From positions 168,092 to 232,091 of the forward strand of contig JAYPJF010000001.1 of NCBI GenBank assembly GCA_038128225.1: a DNA stretch of 64,000 nucleotides, written 5' to 3'. Positions 2,294 to 42,334 of this stretch are shown piece after piece (within the stretch, counting starts at the first letter, position 1; every line of letters starts with the position of its first letter). Below the pieces are notes generated by a model, which worked only from the letters and a program-made list of their open reading frames with translations, was not told the origin of the DNA and made no database searches. Position numbers and translations under genes: made by a program. Origin of the DNA: a bacterium (lineage in GTDB: Bacteria > Patescibacteriota > Minisyncoccia > Phycocordibacterales > UBA2100).

Positions 2294-2434
2294 GCGGCGA
2301 TAGTAGCACACCCTTCCGTTTCGCCAAACGTAAGAACAGTCGTCCCCAGTCGTCTGGCACAGTGTACGCCCCCACGGTGGTATGCTAGTGATGACTACGA
2401 CACCGTAGGCGTTTATCAACAAGCTAGATTACAT

Positions 2435-3343
2435 ATGAGTGTATACCTACACGCAGCTAAGGTTTTTGTTTTTTCATTACTCATCGCCGGGAGTATGTTT
2501 CTTTTTGCTTTTGCAGAAGAGACAACCACTTCTGTAGACGCAACTGTCGAAGTTGGTGTTTCAACCCAAAAACCAGGCCCAAATCAGAAACTTAAAGAAC
2601 AGCGCCAAAACGGCGTCAAAACTTTCCAAGAAGAGAAGAAAAATTTTATTCAAAACCGCCAAGAAGATGTCCAGAAAGCAATGGAAATACGCATGGGCAT
2701 CAAAGAAGACCGGCAAGAATTTCGTCAAGGCGTTATCGACGAGTCGAAAACGATGCGGGGAGAGACCAAAGCAAAACTACAAAACGCCTCAACGACCGAA
2801 GAAAAGAAAGGTATTCTGAAAGCAGCACAAGAAAAACGCCAAGAATTCCGGCAAGATGTTGCTGGTGAACGTAAGGCGCTTGCTGAAGATTTTAAAGGGC
2901 GCCGCGAGGAAATTCGAGAAGCTACAAAACAGCGAGTTGTTGAACGCATGGGCCTTGTTATACAGCGCCTTACTAATTCGCTTGAACGATTCGATCAAAT
3001 CATCGCACGAATGCAGTCGCGCCTTGATAAACTCGTGTCGCAAGGCGTGAGCACCACCAACGCGCAGGCAGCTCTCGACACCGCGAAAGGTAATGTGACA
3101 ACGGCAAAAAATGCAGTCGCGAGTGCAAAAAGTGCAATTGAGGCCGCGGCTACAGCCGAAGATCCAAAGTCTGAAGTAGAAAAAGTCCGCACTGCCATAA
3201 AAACTGCAACCGAGGTTATCAAAAGCACTCACCAAGCAATTAGAAAAGCGGTCGAAGAAATCAAAAAAATAGCTCCGAAAAATACAACCGTATCGGCAAC
3301 TACGTCCGTTGAAAGTACGAGCACTGTCGAATCAAATAATTAA
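2435..3343 (+). CDS. Hypothetical secreted coiled-coil protein with an N-terminal signal peptide and repeated Q.EFRQ motifs
   Basis: Hydrophobic N-terminus FVFSLLIAGSMFLFAFA, followed by a K/E/Q-rich helical region. Confidence 0.5.
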   Translation: MSVYLHAAKVFVFSLLIAGSMFLFAFAEETTTSVDATVEVGVSTQKPGPNQKLKEQRQNGVKTFQEEKKNFIQNRQEDVQKAMEIRMGIKEDRQEFRQGVIDESKTMRGETKAKLQNASTTEEKKGILKAAQEKRQEFRQDVAGERKALAEDFKGRREEIREATKQRVVERMGLVIQRLTNSLERFDQIIARMQSRLDKLVSQGVSTTNAQAALDTAKGNVTTAKNAVASAKSAIEAAATAEDPKSEVEKVRTAIKTATEVIKSTHQAIRKAVEEIKKIAPKNTTVSATTSVESTSTVESNN

Positions 3344-3359
3344 TAACTCATAGCTATAT

Positions 3360-3728
3360 ATGGATCAACAATCGCCTATTACAACACCGTCATCAAATCA
3401 AAACCCACTACCCCCCCAGGAACCTGCTGAGCACCACGGCTCTTTAGGTCCTATCGTTGGTGTTGTTGTAATCATTGCACTCCTCATGTTTGGGGGCCTC
3501 TACTTCTGGGGTGCACAACTCAATAATGACAATGACGATCAAGTTCCCTACATTCCTGAAGAATCAGCTGCGCCACCGATAAACGATAACTCTGACCTGT
3601 CTTCTTCTGATGGTGTCGCAGCAATTGATTCTGACATAGCGGCAACCGACATGGCTGAACTCGAAGCTTCACTTGATGCTGATTTAAAAAGTATCGAAAG
3701 TGACCTTGGCGAACTCGACACCCTCTAA
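3360..3728 (+). CDS. Hypothetical small membrane protein with one TM helix and an acidic C-terminus
   Basis: TM segment GPIVGVVVIIALLMFGGLYFWGA. A terminator hairpin follows the stop. Confidence 0.45.
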   Translation: MDQQSPITTPSSNQNPLPPQEPAEHHGSLGPIVGVVVIIALLMFGGLYFWGAQLNNDNDDQVPYIPEESAAPPINDNSDLSSSDGVAAIDSDIAATDMAELEASLDADLKSIESDLGELDTL

Positions 3729-3741
3729 GAACTGACCCCAA

Positions 3742-3772
3742 ACAGCCGCCCTTCACGGGCGGCTGTTTCGTT
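3742..3772 (+). terminator. Rho-independent terminator hairpin (acagccgccc-ttcac-gggcggctgt) followed by a T-rich stretch
   Basis: Perfect 10-bp stem seen directly in the sequence, located after the 3360..3728 ORF. Confidence 0.5.
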
Positions 3773-3786
3773 GGTAGACTCGCGTA

Positions 3787-4851
3787 ATGTCAGCAACAAT
3801 TAGCTCAAAACAAGCCTTCCCGGAAACTTCAGAGGTTGAAATAAAAGCCTCTCTGTCACCGGAAACACTTGTGTCGTTTCGTGCTAAAGCAATCAAAAAA
3901 TTACAAGAAAAAGTTTCAATTGATGGGTTCCGAAAAGGCCATGTGCCTGAAGATCTTGTGGAGCGTCACGTGGGTGCGGATACCCTTCTCGAAGAAGCTG
4001 CCGATTTGGCGCTTAAGTCGGAAGTGCCGCTCATTCTTGCCCAGGAAAACGTACTCGGTATTGCAACACCGCGAATCACCGTTACCAAACTCGCGCTCGG
4101 TAACCCGCTCGAGTTCACTGTGCGCATTGAAGTGTACCCGACAGTTACTCTCCCTGACTATAAAAAAATCGCCGCGCAGCTCAACAAAAAACGCGAGCTC
4201 GTACACGTGGCCGACGCAGAAGTTGCCGAAGTACTTGTTCGCCTGAGACGTGAGCGCGCAAAAATTGACCGGATCGAAAAAGGCGACAGTGCAGAAGATG
4301 CAGCAAAAAATTCTGTTGAACTCCCAGAGAAAGACCTCCCAGAACTGGACGACGCGTTCGTCAAAGGTCTCGGATATGAAACTCTTGCCGACTTCACTGA
4401 AAAACTCAAGGAAAACATCCAAAAAGACAAAGAGGCGCAGGCACACGAAAAACATCGGTTACTCATCATCGAAACAGTCAGTGCAGAAACTAAAACTGCC
4501 ATTCCTCATACGCTCATCGAGCATGAGGTGCATAAGATGGAAGCGCAATTTGAGTCCGACCTGAAGCAGGCTGGCATGTCATTCGATCAATATTTAACAC
4601 ACATTAAAAAAACGCACGAAGATCTGCATAAAGAATGGCACGAACCCGCTGAAAAACGAGCGAAAGTAGAGCTCATCCTCGCTGAGATCGCACAGAAGGA
4701 GAATTTAAAAGCGAGCGAAGACGAAGTGCGAAAACATGTGGCGCACACACTCAAAACACACAAGGATGCGCCTGAGGAACGCGTATACCAATATTACAAC
4801 CACGTTTTGCGTAATGATGCTGTGCTCCAATTTTTAGAAGAGCAAAAATAG
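3787..4851 (+). CDS. tig: Trigger factor (short form)
   Basis: GFRKGHVP motif and ribosome-binding N-domain features. It sits immediately upstream of clpP in the classic tig-clpP arrangement. Confidence 0.75.
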
Positions 4852-4906
4852 GCGCGAGCCACAAATTGTGATACGATGCGCGGGTATGGATACTCCGAAA
4901 TCACAG

Positions 4907-5455
4907 ATGTTAGTGCCGATGGTGATCGAGAAAACGAGCTTTGGCGAGCGCGCGTTTGATATTTATTCGCGTCTTCTTAAAGATCGCATTATCTTCCTCG
5001 GTGGCCCAATCGACGACCACGTGGCAAACCTCATCATCGCCCAGATGCTTTTTCTTGAGTCGGAAGACCCCAAAAAAGACATTTTCCTCTATATCAACTC
5101 CCCAGGCGGTGGCGTCACCGATGGTATGGCGATCCTCGACACAATGAACTACATTAAGCCGAATGTCTCGACTGTCTGTGTAGGTCTCGCGGCTTCGATG
5201 GCTGCCGTTTTGCTTTCCGCGGGAGAAAAAGGCAAGCGTTTTGTGCTCCCAAACGCAGAAGTTATGATTCATCAACCGCACGGAGGCGCCCAAGGACAAG
5301 CAGCCGACATTGAAATCAGTGCCAAGCGTATCATTCGAATGCGCGAACAATTGGCTCAAATATTGGCTAAAAACACCGGTCAACCCCTCAAAAAGATCCA
5401 AACCGATATGGACCGCGATTTCTTTTTAGAATCAGAAGAGGCAGTGCGATATTGA
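4907..5455 (+). CDS. clpP: ATP-dependent Clp protease proteolytic subunit ClpP. It ends at an in-frame TGA where the conserved C-terminal Gly is expected.
   Basis: Translation reads [33 protein letters not shown]...[18 protein letters not shown]...MIHQPHGG. The downstream in-frame codons encode IVDKVLK, which is the canonical ClpP tail. The track ORF begins at 4868. Confidence 0.85.
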
Positions 5456-5668
5456 ATTGTAGACAAAGTGCTGAAATAGTGGCCCGTCACTCTCTCGTTT
5501 TTCAAAAAAACATGGTACACTTGCTGCGTACCGTTAATAAATAGTCATTACGTCACCGTGCGCTTATGCCATTACTAGACGCCTGCACATCAGATACGAA
5601 GCACCGAAGCATCGATTCTTGTATACAGCGTTTGAGTTACTAGCCGCGCGCGGGGATTTAACCTGCGT

Positions 5669-7198
5669 ATGTCATTAAAAATTTTGTTAGCTTTGCTCGC
5701 AGTAGCGGGCCTCGTCGGCGGAATTGCGGGCTATTTTCTCCGATGGATAGTCGCGCTCGGGAAGCGTGGCTCAATGGAACTTGAAATCAAGCAGATGATG
5801 CTTGAAGCCCAAGAACAAGCGAAGCGTATTGTTTCAGATGCAGAGCAAGAGGCGAAAGTAAGGGAGGAAAAAGTGAGTGAAGAACAAAAAGAGCGCGAAC
5901 GCGATCTGAAGAAAGTTGAGGAACGCTTAGTGCGTCGCGAAGAACTCCTCGATAAGCGGCAGAATGATCTTACGCAAGAACAAACTGAGGTGCGAAACAA
6001 AATCGAGGAGGTACGCAAACTTAAAGAGCGTGTCGACGGTATGGCGCGAGAACGCGAAACAGAGCTTGCAAAAGTAGCAGAGCTTTCAGTTGATGACGCA
6101 AAAAAAGAGCTCGTACAAGTGATCGAAAAGCAATACGAAAACGACCTCGTGCAGCGCATTCACAAGATGGAATCGGTGGGCAAAGAACGCTTGGAACAAA
6201 AAGCTCGTGAAATCCTCACCTCATCAATCCACCGCATTGGAAATTCAGTGGTTTCCGACGTACTCGCCACCACCGTACAGCTCCCCAATGATGAGGTGAA
6301 GGGTAAAATCATTGGTAAAGAAGGGCGCAACATTCGTGCGTTTGAACGAGCGACAGGAGTTGATGTGATCATTGACGATACCCCTGGTACAATCACTCTA
6401 TCTTCGTACGACCCTGTGCGCCGCCAAGTCGCACGCGTTGCGCTTGAAAACCTTATTCTCGACGGGCGAATTCAACCAGCAAAAATTGAAGAAGTGGTAG
6501 TAAAAGCGCAAGAGGAGATTAATCACATCATGAAAAAGAAAGGTGAGGAAGCGGCGTTTAACGCGCGCGTCACCGGCCTCGATCCGAAACTTCTTACCAT
6601 ACTCGGCCGCTTATACTTCCGCACGAGTTACGGCCAAAACGTCCTTGATCACTCCGTAGAAATGGCCCATCTTGCGGGCATGCTTGCTGAGGAGTTGGGT
6701 GCAAATGTCGCGGTTGCACGCGCAGGAGCGCTCATGCATGACATTGGGAAAGCCATGGATCATGAAGTCCCCGGAACGCATGTAGAGATCGGCCGACGCA
6801 TTCTTCAGAAATTTGGTGTAGACGAGGGGGTGATAAAGGCAATGCAGGCGCACCATGAAGAATACCCGTACGAAACCCCTGAGAGTATGATTGTGCAGGT
6901 TTCTGACGCAATTTCTGGAGGACGCCCTGGGGCTCGCCGAGATTCGGTAGAAAACTACATTAAACGCCTTGAGGAGCTCGAATCTATTGCAAACAGCTTT
7001 AAGGGAATTGAAAAAAGCTACGCCATTCAGGCCGGCCGTGAAGTTCGGGTCTTTGTAAGACCTGAGGAAGTCTCGGATTATGAGGCACGCACGCTTGCTC
7101 GGAGTATCGCTGACAAAATCGAGTCAGAAATGCAATATCCGGGAGAGATCAAAGTGCACGTGATCCGTGAAAATCGCGTTATTGAGTACGCACGATAG
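5669..7198 (+). CDS. rny: Ribonuclease Y
   Basis: N-terminal TM helix, a KH domain (GKEGRNIRAFERATGVDVIIDD) and an HD domain (HSVEMAHLAGMLAEE...LMHDIGKA). Confidence 0.9.
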   Translation: MSLKILLALLAVAGLVGGIAGYFLRWIVALGKRGSMELEIKQMMLEAQEQAKRIVSDAEQEAKVREEKVSEEQKERERDLKKVEERLVRREELLDKRQNDLTQEQTEVRNKIEEVRKLKERVDGMARERETELAKVAELSVDDAKKELVQVIEKQYENDLVQRIHKMESVGKERLEQKAREILTSSIHRIGNSVVSDVLATTVQLPNDEVKGKIIGKEGRNIRAFERATGVDVIIDDTPGTITLSSYDPVRRQVARVALENLILDGRIQPAKIEEVVVKAQEEINHIMKKKGEEAAFNARVTGLDPKLLTILGRLYFRTSYGQNVLDHSVEMAHLAGMLAEELGANVAVARAGALMHDIGKAMDHEVPGTHVEIGRRILQKFGVDEGVIKAMQAHHEEYPYETPESMIVQVSDAISGGRPGARRDSVENYIKRLEELESIANSFKGIEKSYAIQAGREVRVFVRPEEVSDYEARTLARSIADKIESEMQYPGEIKVHVIRENRVIEYAR

Positions 7199-7324
7199 GA
7201 TTTTTTGACAAATTCCCTTATTCACAGCCATTTATAAAACGTGTTGACACTGCGCCCTCATTTTAGAACAATAGTGGGGAGCTTATAAAGCGGTCGAGAT
7301 TTAGCCAGGTTTCATTACAATACC

Positions 7325-7597
7325 ATGAACAAAGCAGATCTGATTGATCGCATAGCGAATACCTGTGGCTGCACCAAGGCAGACGCGGAACGCATGATGG
7401 ATACGGTGATCGACACCATTACCGCTTCCCTCAAAAAAGGCGAAGAGGTTGCGATTGCAGGATTGGGTAAGTTCACCGCTAAAATGCGCGCAGGCCGCAC
7501 CGGCCGCAATCCGCGCACCGGCGAATCGGTTCAAATCCCGTCAATGCGCGTCCCTAAGTTCAGCGCTTCAAAAACACTGAAAGACGCGGTGAAATAA
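7325..7597 (+). CDS. hup: DNA-binding protein HU
   Basis: Translation reads MNKADLIDRIA...GLGKFTAKMRAGRTGRNPRTGESVQIP. Confidence 0.9.
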   Translation: MNKADLIDRIANTCGCTKADAERMMDTVIDTITASLKKGEEVAIAGLGKFTAKMRAGRTGRNPRTGESVQIPSMRVPKFSASKTLKDAVK

Positions 7598-7614
7598 GGT
7601 TTCTGTACAATCAA

Positions 7615-7639
7615 AAGACCGCCTCTGGGCGGTTTTTTG
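7615..7639 (+). terminator. Rho-independent terminator after hup (gaccgcc-tctg-ggcggt + TTTTTT)
   Basis: Stem plus T-run seen in the sequence. Confidence 0.65.
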
Positions 7640-7762
7640 ATGCGCGGCTATATGTGCACGCCGCTTGCTAGCTATAAGTTATTCCAAGGTGCTACCATAG
7701 ACATAGTTGCAAAGGGCAATTACTAGGCTGTCTTCCCAAGAGAAGACAGACAATGTATCACT

Positions 7763-7861
7763 ATGGATAACCAAGAATGCGTGTGCCAGGGTGCAGCCCA
7801 GTGTCCAGAAAATTGCACCTGTGATTGTCATAAGGGCGCAGAAAGCGAAACAAGTGCATAG
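7763..7861 (+). CDS. Putative 32-aa cysteine-rich micro-protein (MDNQECVCQGAAQCPENCTCDCHKGAESETSA), metallothionein-like
   Basis: Six Cys plus one His in 32 aa. A strong hairpin at 7872..7904 follows the stop immediately. The ORF is below the track size cutoff and was found by reading the sequence. Confidence 0.3.
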   Translation: MDNQECVCQGAAQCPENCTCDCHKGAESETSA

Positions 7862-7871
7862 CTTCAACAAC

Positions 7872-7904
7872 AAACACAAACCGCCTTTGAGGCGGTTTGT
7901 GTTT
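7872..7904 (+). terminator. Strong hairpin (aaacacaaaccgcc-tttga-ggcggtttgtgttt), a probable intrinsic terminator for the micro-ORF
   Basis: Perfect 14-bp stem ending in a T-rich 3' arm. Confidence 0.45.
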
Positions 7905-8078
7905 GGGAGAACTGCGCAGTAAAAGGTACGGCGCCCGTCCATTCATATATATCCGTTGTTTTGTGCAGAATACTAGAAATAGCTCTAATTCCCCACTGCG
8001 CCGACACGATCAAATTATTCTTTGCCGAACTAATCCAAGGGTTCGCGAAATGAGTGTAACTTTGTTCGTTGAATTGCA

Positions 8079-8110
8079 AAAGAAAAGCCGCTCCCGTTGC
8101 CAGGAGCGGC
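8079..8110 (-). terminator. Terminator hairpin (gccgctcc...ggagcggc) with a T-run on the minus strand, downstream of the 8122..8832 gene
   Basis: Stem seen in the sequence. On the minus strand it is followed by TTTTCTTTT. Confidence 0.5.
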
Positions 8111-8121
8111 CAGTTTAGCGA

Positions 8122-8832
8122 TTAGGCTTGGTGCGGCCAGTGCTCCGTCCCATCGGAGTCAATCCAGTGATATGACTCCGGGTCGTCCGGCGACCCGCAG
8201 GTCACGGTGGCATACCTGCCGCCGTGCTCTGCGGCGAGAAAAATCTTCGTCGCTGCGGCGCGAGCTGCCTTCTCCTGCGGAACACGGAAGCGGAAGGACC
8301 GATTCTTTTCGCCGTTCCGCCCCGAATGGGCGAAAAGGACGAGGTCACTGACATCAGCGCCTTCCTTCGTATCCCACTCGGCATGAAAGTACGCGGCATC
8401 CGCCACCATCTCCTGTTTTTCCGCGAGAAGGTTGTTGACGGCGCGGCTGGCCACCTCGCAGTCAACCTCCTCCCAAAGTTCTTCCCACAAGGTGGACATC
8501 ACTTCGGGAGAGTCCTGGTAGGTCCGGTTGTGCACACGCCGTTCGACGAAGTTGCCGCGCTTGACGAGCACGGCGATCGTCACAGCTTCCAGAAGTGGCA
8601 GTGGGATACAGAGCGAGCTTTCACCTGCCCGCACCACCACCAGGTCGAAATAAGACTCAGACGAGGAGCCCCCATCCGGGTCCTGTGTTTCGATCTCGAC
8701 CTCAAGCCCCTCAGGCTTGTTGTCGAGATACTCCTGAAGCACCACCGCGAGCGCGGTGTTGGCGAGAGAGTAGTCCCCGCCGCTGACCTGCTTTGCGCGG
8801 TTGCCGATCTGGACAATTTTGTGTAGGTTCAT
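8122..8832 (-). CDS. Hypothetical protein of 236 aa. The gene is GC-rich (about 60% against a background of about 48%) and is likely horizontally acquired.
   Basis: Intact ORF with a strong GGAGGAGGG Shine-Dalgarno site, its own consensus promoter and its own terminator. I do not recognise a family for it. Confidence 0.55.
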   Translation of the reverse strand: MNLHKIVQIGNRAKQVSGGDYSLANTALAVVLQEYLDNKPEGLEVEIETQDPDGGSSSESYFDLVVVRAGESSLCIPLPLLEAVTIAVLVKRGNFVERRVHNRTYQDSPEVMSTLWEELWEEVDCEVASRAVNNLLAEKQEMVADAAYFHAEWDTKEGADVSDLVLFAHSGRNGEKNRSFRFRVPQEKAARAAATKIFLAAEHGGRYATVTCGSPDDPESYHWIDSDGTEHWPHQA

Positions 8833-9006
8833 ATCGCCCTCCTCCGGGCTGGTTCCGCACTTGGCGAAGCCGTGAGTTCCACATCAGTTCTCTCTAATGT
8901 GGGGAAGGCCGCATCGTTGCGGCTCCAGCTTTGGCACTAGCGAAGTACCGCCGAAACTGGAGCCGCAGAGAATCTTAATCTCAAAAATCTTCTCTAATCT
9001 GATTGT

Positions 9007-9035
9007 AATATACAATGTTCTATGTTTATTGTCAA
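9007..9035 (-). promoter_or_regulatory. Near-consensus sigma70 promoter (TTGACA-17-TATATT) driving the 8122..8832 gene through a leader of about 170 nt
   Basis: Read on the minus strand: TTGACAataaacatagaacattgTATATT. Confidence 0.45.
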
Positions 9036-9165
9036 TATAAAACTGCGGACTAAACCAAAGGTGTTATAAAATCTTGAGTATCGCATGCCCAAACGTTCTT
9101 TTTTCCCAAAAGATTTAGAGTGCGCGCAGGACAGCGGCGAGCGCCCATTTACAAATCCTTGATTG

Positions 9166-9184
9166 GTGCGGGATGCGGGAATCG
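9166..9184 (-). repeat. 19-nt direct repeat of the tRNA-Gly 3' end (gtgcgggatgcgggaatcg), att-like
   Basis: Identical to 9312..9330 inside tRNA-Gly. No complete tRNA can be folded around this copy. Confidence 0.5.
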
Positions 9185-9312
9185 GTCACGAGTTTCGCTC
9201 TGCGAACCCTCGACCCCGCCTCAGCCCGGCTCGGGCTTCCGGCTTTCGATTCCCACCCTCCGTTACAAAACAACAGTCATCGTACGCTCACGCGTACTCT
9301 TCGTTTGTTTTG

Positions 9313-9383
9313 TGCGGGATGCGGGAATCGAACCCGCGACCTCAGTTTGGAAAACTGATATTTTACCATTAAACTAATCCCGC
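9313..9383 (-). tRNA. tRNA-Gly (anticodon TCC)
   Basis: Reverse complement reads GCGGGATTAGTTTAATGGTAAAATATCAGTTTTCCAAACTGAGGTCGCGGGTTCGATTCCCGCATCCCGCA. It folds as a cloverleaf with anticodon loop TTTCCAA and no encoded CCA. Confidence 0.75.
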
Positions 9384-19912: not shown

Positions 19913-20893
19913 TCAGCTTCGCTTTCTTCCATGGAACTTTTTATGTACTTCTTTAAGGTGTTTGTCGGTTACGTGCGTATAAATCTGTGTTGTATTAATG
20001 CTTGCATGCCCCAAAAGAGCCTGAACACTACGAATATCTGCTCCATTCTGCAGCAGATCGGTAGCAAATGAATGCCTTACAATGTGCGGGGTCACTTTTT
20101 TAGTGATACCAGCCTTAATAGCGTTGCGTTTCACCATGCGCTCAATCGAGCGAACAGTGAGGCGGCTCGCTTTGCCGCGTGCACCCTTGCCATAGTGTAC
20201 AAAAAGCGCCCCGTCGAGATCTTTGCGCGCATCGAGATACATTTTTATAGCCTTCTTAGCCTCGGGTGAAAAAAATACCACGCGCACCTTCTCGCCTTTG
20301 CCGCGGACAGAAAGCTCATCCCGACTTAAATCAACGTCTCGATCAAGTGAGGCAAGTTCTGAGACACGTAGCCCTGTTGAAAAGAGTGTCTCAAGAATCG
20401 CTCGGTCACGCAATCCTTGGAGGCTTTGGAGGTCAGGGGCAGCAAGCAACCTGCCTAATTCTGCCTCAGAAATAAGATCAATCTCACGATCGGGTAATTT
20501 TGCGAGCTCAATTGTTTCCGGCTCAAGTGTTTTGACCCGACATTTACGCAAATACTTCAAAAACGCCCGGAGCGCGATGAGGTAGTAATTCTGAGTTCGC
20601 CTCTTCATTGATCCGCTCACTCCCTCCTGTCGATTGAGCCAGAGCCTGAATTCACGCACAGCGGTCTGTGTTATGTCTTCAGGCTTTTTTGCCTTAGTTT
20701 GAGAGAAAAAACGGGTGAGATACCGATCGTAGTTTTCGACCGTTTTCACCGAACGCCCGCGCTCGATCTCTACATACTCAAGAAATTGCGCCTTGTATTC
20801 TTGGAGATCTGTCGCCACAGGATTATTGTACCTGAGACAACCGGTCAAAGAAGGGCTTGCAATAAGCGAAAGTGCGTGGTACTCTCTCTCCAT
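19913..20893 (-). CDS. xerC: Tyrosine site-specific recombinase XerC/XerD. An alternative GTG start at 20818 is possible.
   Basis: C-terminal catalytic motifs HSFATDLLQNGADIRSVQALLGHASINTTQIYTHV. The ATG at 20893 overlaps the rpsO start codon. Confidence 0.8.
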   Translation of the reverse strand: MEREYHALSLIASPSLTGCLRYNNPVATDLQEYKAQFLEYVEIERGRSVKTVENYDRYLTRFFSQTKAKKPEDITQTAVREFRLWLNRQEGVSGSMKRRTQNYYLIALRAFLKYLRKCRVKTLEPETIELAKLPDREIDLISEAELGRLLAAPDLQSLQGLRDRAILETLFSTGLRVSELASLDRDVDLSRDELSVRGKGEKVRVVFFSPEAKKAIKMYLDARKDLDGALFVHYGKGARGKASRLTVRSIERMVKRNAIKAGITKKVTPHIVRHSFATDLLQNGADIRSVQALLGHASINTTQIYTHVTDKHLKEVHKKFHGRKRS

Positions 20894-21158
20894 GTTGACG
20901 AAACAAAAGAAAGCAAATGAGATCAAAAAAGCACGTCGCCACGACACCGACACCGGTTCTCCGGAGGTGCAGGTTGCGGTTTTGACTCGTCGAATCGATG
21001 AACTTTCTGAGCACTTGCGAAAAAATGACAAAGATAAACATTCGCGCCGCGGCTTGCTCGGACTTGTTGCAGACCGTCGTCGACACCTCAAGTATCTTGA
21101 GAAACACAACAAACGCTCGTACAATGCGCTTGTAAAGAAGCTTGGTCTGAAGAGATAG
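20892..21158 (+). CDS. rpsO: 30S ribosomal protein S15
   Basis: Translation reads MLTKQKKANEIKKARRHDTDTGSPEVQVAVLTRRIDELSEHL. Confidence 0.9.
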   Translation: MLTKQKKANEIKKARRHDTDTGSPEVQVAVLTRRIDELSEHLRKNDKDKHSRRGLLGLVADRRRHLKYLEKHNKRSYNALVKKLGLKR

Positions 21159-22219: not shown

Positions 22220-24406
22220 TTGAATGCTGAAACCTGGAGGTCGCACAATAATGCGATTATGCAGAAAAAAGAATATTCGATAGAAGTAGGCGGAAAAACA
22301 CTCACTGCTTTGTTTACCGACTGGGCACAACGAGCGAACGGTTCAGTCATTATGCGTTATGGAAACACCGCAGTACTTATCACCGCTGTCATGGGTGGAG
22401 AGAAGACCGGTCTCGGCTACTTTCCGCTTTCTGTTGAGTACGAGGAGAAATTTTATGCAGCGGGACAAATTCTTGGAAGTCGCTTTATGCGTCGTGAAGG
22501 TCGCCCTTCTGATGAAGCAATCCTTTCTGGACGCATTATCGACCGCACAATCCGTCCTTTGTTCGAACAACACATTCGTCGTGAGATCCAAGTGATTGCG
22601 ACCGTGTTGTCTACCGAAGAAGATGACGCGGACGTCTTGGGGGTTATTGGAGCATCTCTCGCGCTTGGTACGTCAAATATCCCATGGCGAGGACCGGTCT
22701 CTGCGGTGCGTATTGGCCGTGTCGCTGAGAGCGAGTCGTTCATCATAAACCCAACATACAAAGACCGTGACGATGATCGATCTGTACTTGATGTTCTTGC
22801 GTGCGGAAAGGATGGTCTCATCAACATGATCGAGGTTGCCGCAAAAGAAGTGGGTGAGGATGAGCTTGGGCGTGCGCTCGAACGTGCGGTGGAAGAACAC
22901 AACAAGCTTCAAACATGGCAGCAAAACATTATTACTGAGATCGGAAAAAAGAAAGTTGAAATTCCAAAACCACAACTTGTCGCTACAATTCCGGAAGCGT
23001 TTGCGCCATTTGTTCAGAAACTTACTGACGCGATTTTCGCAGGACCAGGTAAGGACAATATAGACGCGGTGAAAGCTGAATGGTCAGCGTTTGTAAAAAC
23101 CCTCGAAGGCACAAACCCTAGTGACGCCGATGATTACTTCGAACATTGCGTGGACGAAATTGTTCACCGAGAAGCGCTCGAGAATGGACGCCGCCCCGAC
23201 AACCGAAAGTTTGACGAGATTCGCCCTCTCTTTGCACAGGCAGGTGGAATTTCTGAGATCATTCACGGAACTGGAATCTTCTACCGTGGCGACACACATA
23301 TATTTTCCGCACTCACGCTCGGGGGGCCCAGTGATGCACAGCTACTCGACACTATAGAGTACCCTGAGACACATAAACGCTTCATGCACCATTACAATTT
23401 TCCACCGTTTTCAGTTGGTGAAACAGGGAAGGTTGGTGGCACAAATCGCCGCATGGTTGGTCATGGTGCCCTCGCTGAAAAAGCACTCCGTGCGGTGATC
23501 CCTGACAAAAACACATTCCCGTATACTATCCGCATCGTTTCTGAAACTCTCTCATCAAACGGATCGAGTTCTATGGGCTCTGTCTGCGCATCAACACTCG
23601 CCCTCATGGACGCGGGTGTCCCTATCACCGCTCCAGTTGCCGGTATCGCAATGGGTCTCATGATGGATGAAAAATCGTATAAAGTGTTGACTGATATTCA
23701 AGGTCCCGAAGATCACCACGGTGATATGGATTTCAAGGTCGCTGGAACGCGCACGGGAGTAACTGGCGTGCAGATGGATGTGAAAGTGAACGGGATTCCG
23801 GTTCCAATTCTGCGCGAAGCATTTGCACAAGCACAAAAAGCGCGTTTTGAAATCCTCGAAGTATTGCGGAGTGCAATTTCTATTCCTCGCTCGGATATTT
23901 CCCCGCGCGCGCCGAAGATAATCACCATGAAAGTAAAAGTGGAGCAGATCGGCTTGGTGATCGGCCCGGGCGGAAAAATGATTAACGGCATCAAAGAGCG
24001 CACCGGCGTCGAAGAGATTACTATAGAAGATGACGGCACGGTATTTATTACCGGTAAAAACGGCGCCGCCGAAAAAGCGCATAAAGAAATCTACGATCTC
24101 ACTCGTGAGTATAGCGCGGGAGAAAAGTTCGAGGGAGAAGTAACACGACTTCTCGACTTTGGTGCGTTTGTAAAAATTGGACCAAACACCGAAGGGTTGG
24201 TGCATGTTTCAGAAATTGCGCCGTTTAGAATCGAGAAAGTAAGTGATGCGGTTCAGATTGGTGAGGTGGTTCCTGTTATAATCAAAGAGATTGACGAGAA
24301 AGGACGTTATAATCTCTCGATCAAAGCAGCAGACCCTGCGTTTGCGGAACGCAAAGGTCTAAAAACGAACCATGGACCCCGACCAAGCAAAGAACAAAGC
24401 GAGTGA
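22220..24406 (+). CDS. pnp: Polyribonucleotide nucleotidyltransferase (PNPase)
   Basis: Two RNase PH domains, a KH domain and an S1 domain. The gene ends with TGA, so TGA functions as a stop codon in this genome. Confidence 0.9.
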   Translation: MNAETWRSHNNAIMQKKEYSIEVGGKTLTALFTDWAQRANGSVIMRYGNTAVLITAVMGGEKTGLGYFPLSVEYEEKFYAAGQILGSRFMRREGRPSDEAILSGRIIDRTIRPLFEQHIRREIQVIATVLSTEEDDADVLGVIGASLALGTSNIPWRGPVSAVRIGRVAESESFIINPTYKDRDDDRSVLDVLACGKDGLINMIEVAAKEVGEDELGRALERAVEEHNKLQTWQQNIITEIGKKKVEIPKPQLVATIPEAFAPFVQKLTDAIFAGPGKDNIDAVKAEWSAFVKTLEGTNPSDADDYFEHCVDEIVHREALENGRRPDNRKFDEIRPLFAQAGGISEIIHGTGIFYRGDTHIFSALTLGGPSDAQLLDTIEYPETHKRFMHHYNFPPFSVGETGKVGGTNRRMVGHGALAEKALRAVIPDKNTFPYTIRIVSETLSSNGSSSMGSVCASTLALMDAGVPITAPVAGIAMGLMMDEKSYKVLTDIQGPEDHHGDMDFKVAGTRTGVTGVQMDVKVNGIPVPILREAFAQAQKARFEILEVLRSAISIPRSDISPRAPKIITMKVKVEQIGLVIGPGGKMINGIKERTGVEEITIEDDGTVFITGKNGAAEKAHKEIYDLTREYSAGEKFEGEVTRLLDFGAFVKIGPNTEGLVHVSEIAPFRIEKVSDAVQIGEVVPVIIKEIDEKGRYNLSIKAADPAFAERKGLKTNHGPRPSKEQSE

Positions 24407-25604: not shown

Positions 25605-25619
25605 ATTTGCAGACTGTGT

Positions 25620-25997
25620 TTGTGTTGGTATCATGATCGCATGCAGAATCATGATCAGGAACATTTCCGCGAGCGATTACAAAAAGAGCGCCAGGATATT
25701 GAACAAACACTGCGTGAGCGGGGGCATAAAATCGAGGGGCAAGACGATTGGCAAGGCGTTTCTACGGATGTCATAACCGATACCGCCGACGTTAATGAAG
25801 TCGCCGATCAAATCGAAGAGCTCGCAAACAATGTTGCGATCGTCGAAGAACTTGAAAAACGCCTCCACGCCATTACCGCAGCGCTCGCGAAGATCGAAAA
25901 CGGTACCTACGGAATTTGTGACGTATGTGGTGAACGCATCCCACAAGAACGCCTCGAAGCAAACCCTGCGGCTGCAACCTGTACCGCGCACGCATAG
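25620..25997 (+). CDS. DksA/TraR-family C4 zinc-finger-like protein
   Basis: C-terminal motif GTYGICDVCGERIPQERLEANPAAATC. Confidence 0.6.
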   Translation: MCWYHDRMQNHDQEHFRERLQKERQDIEQTLRERGHKIEGQDDWQGVSTDVITDTADVNEVADQIEELANNVAIVEELEKRLHAITAALAKIENGTYGICDVCGERIPQERLEANPAAATCTAHA

Positions 25998-27521
25998 GTG
26001 TACAATACGGACATGAGTTTTGCGCGCATTACGAGCGCACAACCTGACATTCCTCACGCACACCTTGTCGACGTAGAAACCGACGTCGCTCGTGGCCTTC
26101 ATGCGTTTTCAGTGGTTGGTCTTCCAGACAAAGCGGTTGAAGAAGCGCGAGACCGTATCGCGTCCGCGATCAAGCACAGCGGCTTTACTTCACCAAAAAG
26201 TACCAACAAAAAAATAGTTATTTCGCTCGCGCCCGCAGCATTACGAAAAGAGGGTGCGGTTTTTGATGTGCCCATGGCGCTCGGATATCTGCTTGCGGCA
26301 GAAGAAATCAGAGCCGACACTAACACGATGGTCTTTGCAGGCGAGCTTGCGCTCGATGGAAAGGTACGCCCTATTCGGGGCACGCTTTCGATAGCTCTCG
26401 CCGCGAAGACCCGGGGGCTCACCCACGTGTTTGTTCCATACGAAAACGCACCAGAAGCCGCGCTTGTTTCCGGGATCTCCGTGTACCCGGTTACATCTCT
26501 TAATGAACTCGTGGGGCACCTGACCAAAACCAAATTGCTGTCCGTATATACACCTACCCAAGAAACCTCCTCCTCTGAATCCAGCGATGACCTTGAGGCG
26601 ATCCGTGGGCAAGAACATGCTAAACGTGCGCTTGAAATTGCTGCAGCCGGCCGTCACAACATTGCTCTCTTTGGACCACCAGGAACGGGTAAAACCATGC
26701 TCGCGCGTGCATTATGTTCACTACTACCTCCTCTTACTGAAGAAGAGCAAATTGTTGTGACGAGCATCCATTCATACACCGGAACACTTAAGGCCGGTGT
26801 TGCACACCACCCACCATTTCGCGCACCCCACCACACCGCTTCGCATGTTTCTCTTGTTGGTGGTGGTTCAATTCCAAAACCTGGTGAAGTCACGCTTGCG
26901 CACTGCGGCGTTCTGTTTCTCGACGAATTTCCAGAATTTGCGCGTGATTGCATTAACGCGTTACGCCAACCACTGGAAGACCGAGTCGTTTCGGTTTCAC
27001 GAGCGAAAGGCGCGGTGACCTATCCGGCTCATTTTATGCTTGTTGCGGCACTAAACCCGTGTCCCTGCGGTCATTTTGGCTCAGTTCGGTGCACATGCTT
27101 GCCGATCGCAATCGAACGATACCGTAAAAAAGTTTCAGGCCCTATTATGGACCGCATTGACATGTGGGTGCCGGTTGGAAACATTCCCCCCGAAGCGCTT
27201 GCGCTTAGAGGTGTCGGACCGCGTGGAGAGACAGAGGCAGCTCGAGTGCGCGTCGCTGGTGCCCGAGAAATTCAACACAAAAGATTTTCGGACAACAATA
27301 AAGTTAACAGCATGATTTCCGCGCACGATATTGATATTGTTGAGCTTGCTGATACGGTAGAAAAAACTCTGATCGACGCCGCGCGACAACTCGCGCTCTC
27401 TCCGCGAAGCTACCATCGAACAATTAAAGTAGCGCGTACGATCGCAGACCTTGCCGGTTCATCGTCAATAGAAAGCACGCATATGCTCGAGGCGCTTCAG
27501 TACCGACCAAAAGAGTGGTGA
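25998..27521 (+). CDS. comM: Mg-chelatase-like AAA ATPase, ComM/YifB family
   Basis: Walker A FGPPGTGKTM and a Lon-like N-domain. The gene ends with TGA. Confidence 0.85.
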   Translation: MYNTDMSFARITSAQPDIPHAHLVDVETDVARGLHAFSVVGLPDKAVEEARDRIASAIKHSGFTSPKSTNKKIVISLAPAALRKEGAVFDVPMALGYLLAAEEIRADTNTMVFAGELALDGKVRPIRGTLSIALAAKTRGLTHVFVPYENAPEAALVSGISVYPVTSLNELVGHLTKTKLLSVYTPTQETSSSESSDDLEAIRGQEHAKRALEIAAAGRHNIALFGPPGTGKTMLARALCSLLPPLTEEEQIVVTSIHSYTGTLKAGVAHHPPFRAPHHTASHVSLVGGGSIPKPGEVTLAHCGVLFLDEFPEFARDCINALRQPLEDRVVSVSRAKGAVTYPAHFMLVAALNPCPCGHFGSVRCTCLPIAIERYRKKVSGPIMDRIDMWVPVGNIPPEALALRGVGPRGETEAARVRVAGAREIQHKRFSDNNKVNSMISAHDIDIVELADTVEKTLIDAARQLALSPRSYHRTIKVARTIADLAGSSSIESTHMLEALQYRPKEW

Positions 27522-35236: not shown

Positions 35237-36115
35237 GTGGACCACGAGCCTCGTAGCGCTACGCGTTTGCTTTTTATCGTTGCCGCACTTTCGATTGCGG
35301 GGCTACTCGCGGGTTTTGGTGCCACACTCGGAAAATACCGCGCCCCTGTCGCATCGGTAACTCCAACATGGGTATCCGCAACAAAGACTTTTGAGGAAAT
35401 CGACACTGATGGTGATACACTCCCCGACTGGCAGGAGACGCTGTTAGGGACCGATCCTGATAACATCGACTCGGATGGAGACGGAAAAACAGACTCCTTT
35501 GAGCCGCGCGCCAGTTTAGCCCTCAAAGCGAGCGCGGTCTCTGCGCCCAAATCGGTCACTGATGCCGCCGCGGAACGTCTCGTGCGCCAGTACTTAACAC
35601 TAAAACAAGCAAATGCATACACGCCAGAACGCGGAGAGCAGATCGCCTCAGGTCTTATTGAAAGCATTTATGCAACAGTTGCCTTTGAGCCATTCAACGA
35701 GAGCAGTCTCACGCTGGTGCCTGCGAATAAAGAGAGTGTACTCATGTACCAAGAGCGCTTTCGTGACACGATGGCCGCGTTCCTTGACCTTCAAGGCTCA
35801 GAAATTGCTTTGTTTGGAGAATATGCGAATACAAAAAATGAATACTACCTCGCGCAGCTTGAAGGGCGCGCTTCGTTATATGAATCAGTGGCACAAAAAA
35901 TACTTGCGATCCCAACACCCAACGACATGGCAGCCGAACACCTTGAGGTCGTGAATGGTCTTGCGTACTTTGGTGCTGTATTGCGCGACCTCGCACGGTT
36001 TGGCAGAGACCCGCTCACAGCACTTTCTCTTTTGCGCGCATACAACGAGGCGGAAGAGTATGTCGGGAGTACATTCACTGCACTTTCTTCTCGTCTAAAT
36101 ACACAACAGCTATGA
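35237..36115 (+). CDS. Hypothetical N-terminally anchored protein with a Ca-binding-like D-x-D-G-D repeat
   Basis: Motif DTDGDTLPDWQE...DPDNIDSDGDGKTDSFE. Confidence 0.5.
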   Translation: MDHEPRSATRLLFIVAALSIAGLLAGFGATLGKYRAPVASVTPTWVSATKTFEEIDTDGDTLPDWQETLLGTDPDNIDSDGDGKTDSFEPRASLALKASAVSAPKSVTDAAAERLVRQYLTLKQANAYTPERGEQIASGLIESIYATVAFEPFNESSLTLVPANKESVLMYQERFRDTMAAFLDLQGSEIALFGEYANTKNEYYLAQLEGRASLYESVAQKILAIPTPNDMAAEHLEVVNGLAYFGAVLRDLARFGRDPLTALSLLRAYNEAEEYVGSTFTALSSRLNTQQL

Positions 36116-38379
36116 GTAAATTCGTATACATACCCGCATTGCTGCTCTTAAGCATCCCGATGTGGGTATCCGCTGCGGTCACTTTGGACACAGTGCCGAC
36201 AGATGGTTTCGATATGTCAGGCACTGCTCCTCCGGGGTCAACGGTTACTATCGTGGGCCGCACAAGTCGCGCAACATGTCAGACAACGGCGGATACTAAC
36301 GGCCGCTATACATGTAGCTCGTTCGATCGATCACCCCAAGACGGTGAGACCCTTGAACTCCAGTCAATTGAGAACGGCGTTCGCTCTCCAATAACAGAAA
36401 TCGGAAATGGCGTCCAATTAACTGACGCCTCCCGGGAACGATATAACTTTCAACGCGAAGGAGTTTTTGGATGCGCCGCGGGCGCGTACGCAATGCCTGT
36501 GGGAACACTGCGAGCGATCAGTGGCGTATACGTCCCCGTGAACGACGCCGCGGTAACACTTAATACAGGGTATCTGGTTTACAAAGAGTGCGTGCTGGAC
36601 GGAGTTGTGCGCTCAACAGCTGAGTCGGCAACTGCTGCATTGTCCACAGGGGGGCTTCGCTGGCTCAATGAAGGGAGAAACGGGAACACCCAGTTTATTT
36701 CAAATCAGGAAGCTGAAAAACTCGCCCTTGCTGACAAGAAATATCTTGAGTTTTTGAGAGAATACCGAACCAATGCGCTTTGTGAACCATTCCAACAACG
36801 TGGTCGTGTCGCCGTCGCGAAAATGTACCTGACCCGCCGTGACCCAACAGCCGCATTCCAGTGTACAGCGCCGGTAAACGGCGCCGACCTTGAGACATGT
36901 ATCACTGTAGGAGATGACTTGCGTACCTGCGGAGGCCTACCAGGGTTTATTAAACTTGTACGTGATTCAAATAATAACCCTCTCTTTGCCGCTTTGGCAC
37001 TTGATCGAGAAGCAGCAAATCAGTCGGTTCGTCGCATACAAGATGTCTGGGATCAACTGGATTGGAGCGGTGGCATTTTGCCGCTCGAGGAAGTTGTTTC
37101 AACGGCAACCGAAACAGGGGAGGACCATTTGGAATATCGAACACTTACCCCGGGGTTTCTCATTGCTGCAGCGATGGAGCAGTTCACCACATCGGGGTTT
37201 AGGCAACTTGAAAGCGCCTCTGAAATTGATCAGATTGTTGGTGCGCTTTTTTCTGGTCTCACCACACAAATCGTTGCTGACGCCCGCGGCTTATCTGGGC
37301 TTACAGAAAGTAAAGGAGGACAGGCTCCATACCTTAATCGTCTTACAGCAGAGTCGTCTGCCCGCGTACGCACAGGGGCAACGAACGCCGCTTTAAGCGT
37401 CCTTGGTTCTTCGCTCGAAGCGGAAAATCAATATAACCAGGTCAAAAAGTCCACAATTCAAGAACTCGAACGTTCGATAGCTCGCCTCAAGGCAGCAGAA
37501 GATGCGTGCTGGAATCTTTTAATACCCGCAGTTCAGGCTATTGCACGAGAGTGTGTGCGCACAGAAACAAGCACCAACACGCAAGGAGAGCAAGTAACAA
37601 CATGCGTTGAATACCGGACGATTCCGCTTGCCATTTCAACCTCGACACGCAGGATCACCGAGGGCGTGGTTGCGCTTTCAGTATCGGCAAGTACCACGCT
37701 TCAAGCCGGAGCCTCACTTGCATTCACGGTTCCGCAAAACACTCTCATGAGCAGCGGCTCGCTCGGATTAACAACTGCTTCTGCAGGCGAACTTGGCCCC
37801 GGAACTAATGTTGGCCTTCCAATAAGCGGGACCGTTGCGCCAAGCCCTGGTGGCCGGGCGACGCTCTCGGTAGGGTCGTTTTCGTTCTTTAGTGGCGGCT
37901 CTCTTTCTTTTGATTTGTTCCAGGGGGCTTCGCTCCCTTTGGGTGAAGTGCGTTTTCCTGTGACCGCAGTGTACCCATACACAATAGCCGTCGCGCTTTC
38001 AGTTGAAATTGCCCGATTGTATTCGGACGATGTTGCGCAAGATAGCATCAACCCGCTTCTCAATACTATTCGAACCGATGTACGAAAGTCTGACGAAGCG
38101 ATCGTGTTGCTGCAACGTTTGGTAAACGATGTACGAAACACGTCATCGCAAACCGTGCAACGTCTTGCGCTTGAACGACTCGATACTCTAATTTCCCAAG
38201 GCACTGTTCACACCGCGTATGATGTAAAATCAGCACAATCTCAAAACGAGAGCGTTAAAAATGCTATGGAGGATCTTGTAAAAACCACGATCGAAGAGTG
38301 GGGCACGGGCAGTGGGTGGTGCAACGCTGAAAATCCTACCGTGGTCCAAATGTGGCTCGACCGCTGGCGCGCCGATTAG
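36112..38379 (+). CDS. Large secreted protein (755 aa), a candidate surface or adhesin component of the T4SS-like cluster
   Basis: Signal peptide MSKFVYIPALLLLSIPMWVSAAV. No recognisable catalytic motifs. Confidence 0.55.
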   Translation: MSKFVYIPALLLLSIPMWVSAAVTLDTVPTDGFDMSGTAPPGSTVTIVGRTSRATCQTTADTNGRYTCSSFDRSPQDGETLELQSIENGVRSPITEIGNGVQLTDASRERYNFQREGVFGCAAGAYAMPVGTLRAISGVYVPVNDAAVTLNTGYLVYKECVLDGVVRSTAESATAALSTGGLRWLNEGRNGNTQFISNQEAEKLALADKKYLEFLREYRTNALCEPFQQRGRVAVAKMYLTRRDPTAAFQCTAPVNGADLETCITVGDDLRTCGGLPGFIKLVRDSNNNPLFAALALDREAANQSVRRIQDVWDQLDWSGGILPLEEVVSTATETGEDHLEYRTLTPGFLIAAAMEQFTTSGFRQLESASEIDQIVGALFSGLTTQIVADARGLSGLTESKGGQAPYLNRLTAESSARVRTGATNAALSVLGSSLEAENQYNQVKKSTIQELERSIARLKAAEDACWNLLIPAVQAIARECVRTETSTNTQGEQVTTCVEYRTIPLAISTSTRRITEGVVALSVSASTTLQAGASLAFTVPQNTLMSSGSLGLTTASAGELGPGTNVGLPISGTVAPSPGGRATLSVGSFSFFSGGSLSFDLFQGASLPLGEVRFPVTAVYPYTIAVALSVEIARLYSDDVAQDSINPLLNTIRTDVRKSDEAIVLLQRLVNDVRNTSSQTVQRLALERLDTLISQGTVHTAYDVKSAQSQNESVKNAMEDLVKTTIEEWGTGSGWCNAENPTVVQMWLDRWRAD

Positions 38380-38382
38380 AAT

Positions 38383-40449
38383 ATGTTTTTCCCAAGAACA
38401 AAAAGTAGACTGCGCCCGTTTTTGTTAGTAACACTGATCATGTTCTCTTTGCTAACACTTGGGGCAACAGCGTATGCCGCATCACCCCCGGCTCCTGATG
38501 TGTGTGCTACATACAGATATTTTCCGCCTTTCGAATGCTTTGGCCGGTGGGCAGCAGAATTTCTAGGAGCGGCATTTTTAATTATTACCGGCTTCATCTT
38601 GGGTATTGTTGGAGTCGTTTTTAACAAACTGGTTGAAATTTCAGTAATTGATTTTGCGACATTTTACGACCCAATGAAAACAGCAGTCGAGCTTGGGTGG
38701 TCAACGTTTCGCGACGTCGCAAATATCGCTATTATTGGCGGTTTTGTATTTGTTGCCATCTCGATGATCTTGGGAGTGGAGAAGTTTGGCGCGCGCCGGT
38801 TTGTGGTGAATATTTTGATTGCTGCGGTACTCATCAACTTCAGTCTATTTTTTACTAAAATGATCGTTGATGTTTCCAACTTGTTTGCTTCACAATTCGC
38901 ACAAGCAATCAGCACGAGTACGACAAGTGCAAATATCAGCATTGGCCAAGTAGCGGAGCCTGTCGGTATCGCTGAAGCGTTTTTAAGTTACTTAAAGATT
39001 TCTAGTGTGCTGGATTCATATGGGGCGTTGCAACAACTCGGATCAAACACACAGTCTGGATTCCAGGTGCTGCTGGCAGCATTCTTGGGTTCTGTTTTTT
39101 TTATGCTCGCCGCACTGGTTTTACTGTACGCCTGCGTGCTGCTACTGGTTCGCACCGTCATGATTATTATGCTACTTCTCCTTTCTGCACTCGCGTTCGG
39201 GGCATACGCTGTGCCCACATTCTCGAACTGGTTTGATCGGTGGTGGAAAGAGCTGGTAAAACACGCTCTATTCGCTCCACTACTTATGCTTTTCCTATGG
39301 GCTACGGCCGGAATTTCTCGCGCACTCAGTGGCAGTGAAGGGTCACTTGGCTCGCTTGTCACTTCGCCCGACAGCAGTGTATCCGTAGGGACTGTGGTGA
39401 ACTTTTTTATCATCATTGGCTTACTGCTCGCATCAATCAAAATCGCAAATAGCTTTTCTGCTACAGCAGCAAAACATATGCCGAACTGGAAAGGAGCCGC
39501 CTCGTTTGCTGCAACATTCGGTGCAAACAAATGGTATCGGCCAGTACGAAACCTCGCTCGCTACGGGCTTAGCGCGCGCGCAAATCGAATACTTGAAGGT
39601 GAGAAAGGCGCGCGCATACGTGGAGAATTGGCCAATCTTGAAGAAAATATAAGGAAAGGAACAGCCTCAGGAAATGAAAAAGCTCGCGCGGCAGCGCTCC
39701 AGCGGCGCCTTGGTAACCTTACTGCCGATGCGGAAGGGAGGTTTGGATTCAAGGAGACGTATCTTGGCAAACAAATAGCGGGGTTTGGTAAAATTCTTAA
39801 GGAAGGTCCAGGAAAGGGTGGCGTAGCTGCTTCGCAGCAGAAAGCAGCCCAAGCAGAAATCGAACAAGCTGAGAAAATTAGAGCACCAAGGAGTGCCGAA
39901 AAACAAGAAGCTTTCGAAGCTGCTTTGAAAGATAAGAATGCGGTTGCACAGAAAATCCTACAAGACGCAAAAGCAAGTGAGCAAGCGGCGCGAAGTGAGG
40001 CGGAAAAGCAAATATCACAACTAGAAAGAGAGAGGGAAGTGTACCGAGAATTAATGGGGGCCGGTGATACTGAAAATGCCGCAGCAAACTACACAAGGAC
40101 CGAACAAGCTCTTGGCGAACAGCGTGCACGCATAGTGAAGGCGGCGCAGTCTGTCAAAGAAGCGGAGCGTACACTTGCAAACACCCCATCGGAAGCCCTC
40201 AAGTCTGCCCAGGCCGTTGCAAAAACTGTACAGAACGAGCGTATTGAAACATATGTGACCAACAAGTTCCCAGAAAGTTCGTACAAGCGAGAGTCAGCGA
40301 TGTCACAGCTCAGAAAAACAAAAGAGGACAAGGACAAGGCAAAAATTCTAGAGAAAGGAATCAAAGCGGCGCAAGAACTTTCTGGCGAAGATGTGGGCCT
40401 CAAAAAACCTACTGCTGCTGAATCAGGTGTTGAAAAGAAAGCTGCATAA
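38383..40449 (+). CDS. Polytopic membrane protein with a long C-terminal charged coiled-coil, VirB6/TrbL-like. Assignment is by topology and gene context.
   Basis: Signal peptide followed by at least six hydrophobic helices, then a K/E/A-rich tail. It lies directly upstream of the PrgI-like and VirB4-like genes. Confidence 0.5.
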   Translation: MFFPRTKSRLRPFLLVTLIMFSLLTLGATAYAASPPAPDVCATYRYFPPFECFGRWAAEFLGAAFLIITGFILGIVGVVFNKLVEISVIDFATFYDPMKTAVELGWSTFRDVANIAIIGGFVFVAISMILGVEKFGARRFVVNILIAAVLINFSLFFTKMIVDVSNLFASQFAQAISTSTTSANISIGQVAEPVGIAEAFLSYLKISSVLDSYGALQQLGSNTQSGFQVLLAAFLGSVFFMLAALVLLYACVLLLVRTVMIIMLLLLSALAFGAYAVPTFSNWFDRWWKELVKHALFAPLLMLFLWATAGISRALSGSEGSLGSLVTSPDSSVSVGTVVNFFIIIGLLLASIKIANSFSATAAKHMPNWKGAASFAATFGANKWYRPVRNLARYGLSARANRILEGEKGARIRGELANLEENIRKGTASGNEKARAAALQRRLGNLTADAEGRFGFKETYLGKQIAGFGKILKEGPGKGGVAASQQKAAQAEIEQAEKIRAPRSAEKQEAFEAALKDKNAVAQKILQDAKASEQAARSEAEKQISQLEREREVYRELMGAGDTENAAANYTRTEQALGEQRARIVKAAQSVKEAERTLANTPSEALKSAQAVAKTVQNERIETYVTNKFPESSYKRESAMSQLRKTKEDKDKAKILEKGIKAAQELSGEDVGLKKPTAAESGVEKKAA

Positions 40450-40453
40450 ATAT

Positions 40454-41104: not shown

Positions 41105-41156
41105 ATTTATGCCACACCCATGCGTGCATGCAGTATATCGTTGATATAATGCTTCC

Positions 41157-41669: not shown

Positions 41670-41671
41670 CT

Positions 41672-42331: not shown

Positions 42332-42334
42332 GAT

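Follow-up and report, generated by a model that had tools for sequence, protein, structure and literature searches.

A TGA at the invariant glycine codon of a patescibacterial clpP gene is an ordinary stop codon private to one assembly

Does a TGA that stands exactly at a conserved glycine position of a patescibacterial clpP gene reveal an unusual decoding of UGA, or is it a common stop codon? The question is raised by the plus strand of the window, i.e. the whole 64,000-nt stretch of DNA that was analysed, in which positions 5441-5479 read GCA GTG CGA TAT TGA ATT GTA GAC AAA GTG CTG AAA TAG, encoding A V R Y (stop) I V D K V L K (stop). In this assembly, clpP (4886-5455, plus strand) comprises 189 codons with the tail ...EEAVRY and is terminated by the TGA at 5453-5455, the first base of which (5453) is a T. 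The start codon is the ATG at 4886 in both the NCBI and the Logan gene calls, with the GTG at 4868 as an alternative. The TGA occupies the position of the invariant Gly190, which is Gly183 in the mature numbering of E. coli. It is followed by seven in-frame codons for IVDKVLK (5456-5476, plus strand), the ancestral C-terminal strand of ClpP including Leu196 (E. coli Leu189), which is untranslated in the T allele. A TAG at 5477-5479 on the same strand is the ancestral clpP stop and serves the 197-aa allele P0121, which is treated below. Re-reading of the sequence and the family alignment bore out the preliminary description, according to which the ClpP ORF ends with ...VRY-TGA at the place of the conserved Gly. 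The canonical tail that it had placed in the next eight in-frame codons is also present, but the count has to be corrected to seven sense codons and the TAG. The TGA belongs to the deposited record and is not an artefact of the window, because the NCBI record of the same genome (a 376,516-bp contig) holds the truncated 189-aa form of the protein, P0001.

Read through the TGA, the encoded protein is a typical ClpP by its matches. It was recognized by the Pfam profile CLP_protease (PF00574) with E = 7.8e-85, residues 20-196 lying on profile positions 3-179 of 182, and it aligned end to end with the solved ClpP structures of B. subtilis, E. coli, and S. aureus (E about 1e-82). The catalytic triad is intact, and all of it is encoded 5' of the TGA: Ser104 (5195-5197), His129 (5270-5272), and Asp178 (5417-5419) align with Ser97, His122, and Asp171 of E. 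coli in the structure-sequence alignment. The conserved C-terminal segment YG(I/L)(V/I)D.(V/I)L is incomplete in the window allele, which stops after the Tyr, and full in P0121.

The alignment of ClpP orthologs, which the preliminary description had proposed as a check, gave a uniform result. In 119 of the 119 best protein matches (the window's own protein excluded), the site of the TGA reads Y-G-[IVL]-[VIA]-D-[KQ]..., i.e. the conserved Gly followed by the tail, and none of these proteins ends at the Tyr or truly at ...VRY. Many of the 119 end with ...YGIVDK(V/I)LK, level with the TAG of the window, and several exactly with ...YGIVDKVLK*. Identities of 75-83% were reached by the closest ClpPs, which belong to Candidatus Kaiserbacteria, Paceibacterota, and the Patescibacteria group. 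Since protein databases might under-represent truncated proteins, the comparison was repeated at the DNA level with 80 species-representative genomes. At residue 190, the aligned codon was GGN in all 80 species (GGC 31, GGT 22, GGA 21, GGG 6). In none of the 80 genomes was a TGA found at this codon, and none of them encodes a ClpP that stops fewer than 6 residues past the conserved Gly. Judged from the sequences, the match of the tail after the TGA to the ClpP family is far beyond chance.

The genes around clpP are arranged in the order nusA, ppa, two unknown genes, tig, clpP, rny, and hup. The 5' neighbour is tig, identified by Pfam (3787-4851, plus strand). It encodes a trigger factor of 354 aa with a Trigger_N domain (13-152) and a Trigger_C domain (199-352) according to Pfam and about 46 residues between them, and this trigger factor appears to be devoid of the central FKBP-type PPIase domain. 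The 3' neighbour, also identified by Pfam, is rny, the gene for RNase Y (5669-7198, plus strand). Accordingly, clpP is followed by rny and not by the usual clpX (4886-7198, plus strand), and clpX was found neither after clpP nor elsewhere within the 64-kb window. A crude motif scan of 80 related loci (L015-L094) revealed an RNase Y KH motif 3' of clpP in 17 and a ClpX-like Walker A motif in 15. The printed examples of the former are from Patescibacteria, 'Candidatus Saccharibacteria', Paceibacterota or Nomurabacteria, while two printed examples of the latter are of the Firmicutes type.

Independent assemblies of the same strain were decisive for the question. The 90% identity cluster of P0001 contains one further member, the 197-aa protein P0121, which equals the ClpP of the window over residues 1-189 and continues with Gly and IVDKVLK. 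P0121 is carried by at least 6 Logan contigs, four of which are listed (from SRR26337526, SRR30758783, DRR685536, and SRR23967303), and at all four listed loci, the clpP codon is found in the context ...CGA TAT GGA ATT GTA.... The window was compared base by base with seven runs, and no indels were found in these comparisons. There were no differences to SRR26337528 over 32,533 bases and to DRR404984 over 9,110 bases. A single difference each was found to SRR26337526 (contig L002; 9,195 bases) and to DRR685536 (two contigs; 11,569 bases), in both cases at 5453, with T in the window and G in the run. The only difference to DRR685533 over 27,076 bases was at 21154 (G in the window, A in the run). 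The contigs of SRR30758783 (L003; 7,825 bases) and SRR23967303 (L005; 3,819 bases) had 5 and 7 differences, respectively, including G at 5453 in both. Every other assembly that spans 5453 has a G, and an exact look-up of the 189-aa protein found T at 5453 together with the downstream sequence in the NCBI record and in no other assembly. A Logan contig with a 189-aa 'protein' (L001) was considered as a second witness of the TGA and rejected, because its ORF breaks off where the contig ends. No match in GTDB representative genomes or JGI metagenome contigs was obtained with a 36-mer that spans the site and has N at 5453.

Taken together, the window genome is essentially clonal with populations that several studies have sampled, and only the window assembly has the T at 5453. 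The ancestral codon is GGA, and TGA is one G-to-T transversion away from it. The preliminary description had proposed just this single substitution, and the otherwise identical conspecific assemblies indeed have GGA at exactly that codon. It had also named read data with GGA as evidence against its view, and GGA was found at the level of independent assemblies. Because these assemblies are otherwise identical and read GGA, the stop in clpP reflects either a recent nonsense mutation or a wrong base, but no recoding. As had been noted, the sequence after the TGA is still protein-like: IVDKVLK is unchanged, with zero decay. The tail codons are intact because the G-to-T change is very recent or not real. 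The normal clpP of the organism encodes a 197-aa ClpP that ends with ...VRYGIVDKVLK.

The comparison of the assemblies also led to several observations on other parts of the window. The near-clonal genome (0-1 differences per 9-32 kb and no indels, window 1-46950 compared with L001-L014) occurs in unrelated accession series, namely SRR263375xx, DRR6855xx, and DRR404984, and slightly diverged strains are present in SRR30758783 and SRR23967303. Position 21154 (G in the window, A in DRR685533), the sole other difference to the near-clonal populations, is located at the 3' end of rpsO, the gene for S15 (20892-21158). Contigs from several independent runs end within 7500-9310 (at 7522, 7825, 7899, and 9195), and the next one starts at 9308, adjoining the tRNA-Gly(UCC) gene at 9312-9383. 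The pattern points to a repeat, or to a segment that varies between strains, around a gene for an unknown protein of 236 aa at 8122-8832. Co-directional genes for large proteins without a confident Pfam match (755 and 669 aa) are located at 36112-46824 on the plus strand, followed by genes for PrgI-like, TraC-like, and VirB4/TraG-type P-loop ATPase proteins and by three more unknown genes. The cluster, which resembles a module for type IV secretion or a conjugation-like process, is 100% conserved in three other runs. Further downstream, yidC (47273-48007, minus strand), dnaA (48542-49888, plus strand), and dnaN (50088-51182, plus strand) lie together, and the GC content falls to 0.41 at 48-52 kb; the region 47273-51182 is probably the chromosomal replication origin region.

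SRR26337528 is identical to the window over the bases compared, and its contigs leave a gap at the variant. Its contig L001 is 100% identical to window positions 2357-5452 and ends one base before the variant, and the next contig, L008, corresponds to 5476-7899, also with 100% identity. The contigs of this run are unbroken across sites that are variable in other strains (3216, 3572, 4000, 4377, and 6097-6895), so that the break points to a cause specific to 5453 in this run. With contig ends every few kb, we estimate the chance of an end exactly at 5452 to be roughly 1 in 10,000. A branch of the de Bruijn graph at 5453 would end a contig at 5452 and would thus explain the left edge of the gap, and the break suggests, if only indirectly, that both bases occur at 5453 in the reads of SRR26337528. 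The gap at 5453-5475 comprises 23 nt. A simple SNP bubble with k=31 was rejected as its full cause: the left edge fits, but the predicted right edge is 5454, whereas 5476 was observed. The right edge hints at a second variant near 5475 or at a more complex graph in this run.

What would the loss of the last eight residues mean for the protein? According to the alignment, the counterparts of residues 189, 190, and 196 of the window ClpP in mature E. coli ClpP are Tyr182, Gly183, and Leu189. Query residue 196 also aligns with position 190 of the 198-residue chain of 6sfx, which we take to be Listeria ClpP2. In E. coli ClpAP, the pocket for the IGL loop is formed partly by the C-terminal strand of the neighbour protomer, including L189, and R192 adds contacts (10.1101/820209). 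In Listeria ClpP2, the loss of the last 3-5 non-conserved residues was tolerated, and the deltaC-6 variant precipitated during purification (10.1101/638692). The 6sfx mapping implies that even deltaC-6 still keeps the conserved Leu, whereas the window allele loses everything from the Gly on. The truncated ClpP, if real, is probably crippled, because it lacks the residues that make up the C-terminal strand of the pocket at which the loops of ClpX and ClpA dock. Judged by this comparison, ClpP(1-189) is likely to lack stability, the ability to dock ClpX or other Clp ATPases, or both.

The host is a Patescibacterium and the stop is placed exactly at a Gly position, and both would fit a lineage in which UGA is a glycine codon, or is becoming one, as in code 25. 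The preliminary description had already excluded a genome-wide decoding of UGA as Gly, with the arguments that pnp and comM terminate with TGA and that long ORFs are intact. Both arguments hold, as the genes for PNPase (22259-24406) and ComM (26013-27521) do end with TGA, and code 11 leaves ORFs of up to 794 aa uninterrupted. The exclusion can be put on a broader basis, because the 43 genes of the window, which are independent calls on Logan contigs moved to window coordinates, end with TAA in 20, TAG in 13, and TGA in 10 cases. When every ORF of at least 100 codons was inspected together with its in-frame continuation, no second gene that is cut by a TGA and has a plausible continuation was found in the 64 kb, so that clpP is the sole such case. 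The only adjacent pair in the same frame, 25605-25997 / 25998-27521, was rejected as an interrupted gene, because the separator is a TAG and the parts are two separately called genes, for a DksA/TraR-type zinc finger protein and ComM. In the region 25641-27521 (plus strand), the zinc-finger ORF ends with the TAG at 25995-25997, and the ComM/Mg-chelatase-like gene follows directly in the same frame, tightly packed against it, with the GTG at 25998 or the ATG at 26013 as its start. The tRNAs encoded in the window are tRNA-Gly(UCC), tRNA-Gly(GCC), tRNA-Pro(UGG), and tRNA-Arg(UCG), and no tRNA with the anticodon UCA was found in the 64-kb window, which has a GC content of 48.6%. The only bacteria known to use UGA as a glycine codon are Absconditabacteria and Gracilibacteria, which have a tRNA-Gly(UCA) and are devoid of RF2 (PMC8629427); for code 25 of Absconditabacteria/SR1 and Gracilibacteria, a passage of that article cites Campbell et al. 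2013 and Rinke et al. 2013. Two glycine tRNAs with other anticodons, the intact ORFs, the GC content, and the confinement of this code to two other clades thus all stand against code 25 in the lineage of the window, as does the GGA of the conspecifics at the clpP site, and its probability is vanishingly small.

Programmed readthrough or recoding of this one UGA, with insertion of Gly, Trp or Sec, would yield ClpPs of 189 aa and 197 aa in a regulated manner, and the frame past the TGA is perfectly kept up to the ancestral TAG. In addition, UGA is the leakiest bacterial stop codon, with about 2-4% readthrough in an E. coli reporter, where Trp-tRNA(Trp) competes with RF2 (PMC10570021), and this leakiness might yield some full-length ClpP with W190 by accident. 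However, the stop is not conserved: GGA is present in L002-L005 of the same species, and a stop was found in 0 of the 119 proteins and 0 of the 80 species. A stimulatory structure was also not detected. The RNA of 5430-5560 folds no better than shuffled sequence (minimum free energy -21.2 kcal/mol, mean of dinucleotide shuffles -25.2 kcal/mol, z = +1.05), and a pattern scan of the plus strand revealed no structure adjoining the TGA. The 21 nt between the TGA and the TAG are too few to accommodate a SECIS-like element within the ORF. Selenocysteine was rejected, because all homologues have Gly and none has Cys or Sec at the site, and there is no hairpin. Accidental decoding would put a Trp at an invariant Gly, and full-length ClpP with W190 would at most be a small fraction, by accident and not by design. 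A programmed event is therefore extremely unlikely. Of the three explanations that had been offered initially, a recent nonsense mutation and a sequencing error stay viable, whereas the GGA of the conspecifics argues strongly against programmed readthrough.

The TGA is an ordinary stop codon that differs by one G-to-T transversion from the GGA codon for Gly190 and is private to the window assembly. Whether the T exists in the organism is a separate matter. With moderate confidence, we prefer the reading that it is a real and very recent variant, because the assembly is otherwise free of errors in comparison with more than 60 kb of independent contigs, because samples genuinely differ by about one SNP per tens of kilobases, and because the contigs of SRR26337528 break exactly at 5453. 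The T allele would then be carried by a part of the sampled population. Translation would end at the UGA, presumably through RF2, and would produce a ClpP without its last eight residues, i.e. without the C-terminal strand that is expected to line the hydrophobic pocket in which the IGF/IGL loops of ClpX and ClpA dock. The allele would be a loss-of-function allele that is too young to have undergone further decay. Selection should act against a nonsense change in a protease as highly conserved as ClpP, and this speaks against a real variant and raises the odds of an error.

That the true base at 5453 is a G and the T is a sequencing, consensus or assembly error is a possibility to be taken seriously, even if it is the less probable one. 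The error might be a site-specific miscall, a polishing error, or a path from minority or damaged templates (e.g. a G>T of the 8-oxoG type) that was picked by the assembler. All assemblies that span 5453 have a G, including that of SRR26337526, a sibling run of apparently the same study, and the T allele was never recovered independently. Moreover, the loss of an invariant residue and of a structurally important strand is unlikely to be tolerated in a conserved protein, and the codons past the TGA show zero decay. The graph break at 5452|5453 in SRR26337528 would likewise be accounted for by a miscall that recurs at this site. However, the error rate of the assembly is very low, as there are 0 substitutions or indels against 32.5 kb of SRR26337528 and 1 against 27 kb of DRR685533. 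The density of real SNPs between samples is similar, as exemplified by G/A at 21154. To our knowledge, G>T after TAT is also not the classic systematic Illumina error, which is GGT>GGG. As a rule, G>T errors of the damage type are infrequent at any one site and do not prevail in the consensus. If the variant is real, as we prefer to think, it could even be kept at an appreciable frequency because a crippled ClpP or a trickle of W190 protein is advantageous. A segregating loss of ClpP function might allow escape from ADEP-type natural products that activate ClpP or relief from the degradation of some substrate, but we regard such an advantage as very unlikely.

In summary, the TGA in clpP is a clean negative. 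It looks like a hint at code-25-like recoding or readthrough, but it needs no new biology of decoding, because the same strain has GGA in other data sets. It is nothing new in kind but an ordinary nonsense SNP or a base error, which is an already known class. The ClpP of this record is best treated as a protein of 197 aa whose gene carries a nonsense SNP seen in no other assembly or, possibly, a wrong base. Should the T allele be real, it represents one natural C-terminally truncated ClpP and is of minor interest. The case also shows that such questions can be answered without the reads, by exact look-ups of protein and DNA in independent assemblies.

The comparison with known systems leads to the same result. 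The case resembles code 25 in that a member of the Patescibacteria/CPR has a UGA where a glycine codon belongs, but UGA regularly terminates genes of the window (10 of 43), is found in-frame in one gene only, is not matched by a tRNA(UCA) in the window, and is replaced by GGA in conspecifics. The likeness to programmed readthrough and selenocysteine insertion consists of an in-frame UGA followed by conserved coding sequence; the differences are that the stop of the window is present in no relative, that there is neither a downstream structure nor a homologue with Cys or Sec, and that the residue concerned is an invariant Gly. At the protein level, the closest parallel is offered by the deltaC-3 to deltaC-6 variants of Listeria ClpP2 (10.1101/638692), which also lack C-terminal residues located over or along the hydrophobic groove for the IGF loops of ClpX. 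In contrast to these engineered cuts, which took only the non-conserved extension beyond the ...YGLID..L motif, the window allele removes the conserved motif itself (the equivalents of E. coli 183-189) and is therefore a deeper cut than any of the Listeria ClpP2 deletions tested. Lastly, nothing sets the TGA of the window clpP apart from the class of strain-level nonsense SNPs (incipient pseudogenes) and consensus base errors in MAGs: it is a single, private base, otherwise identical genomes carry the wild-type codon, and the tail behind it is undegraded.
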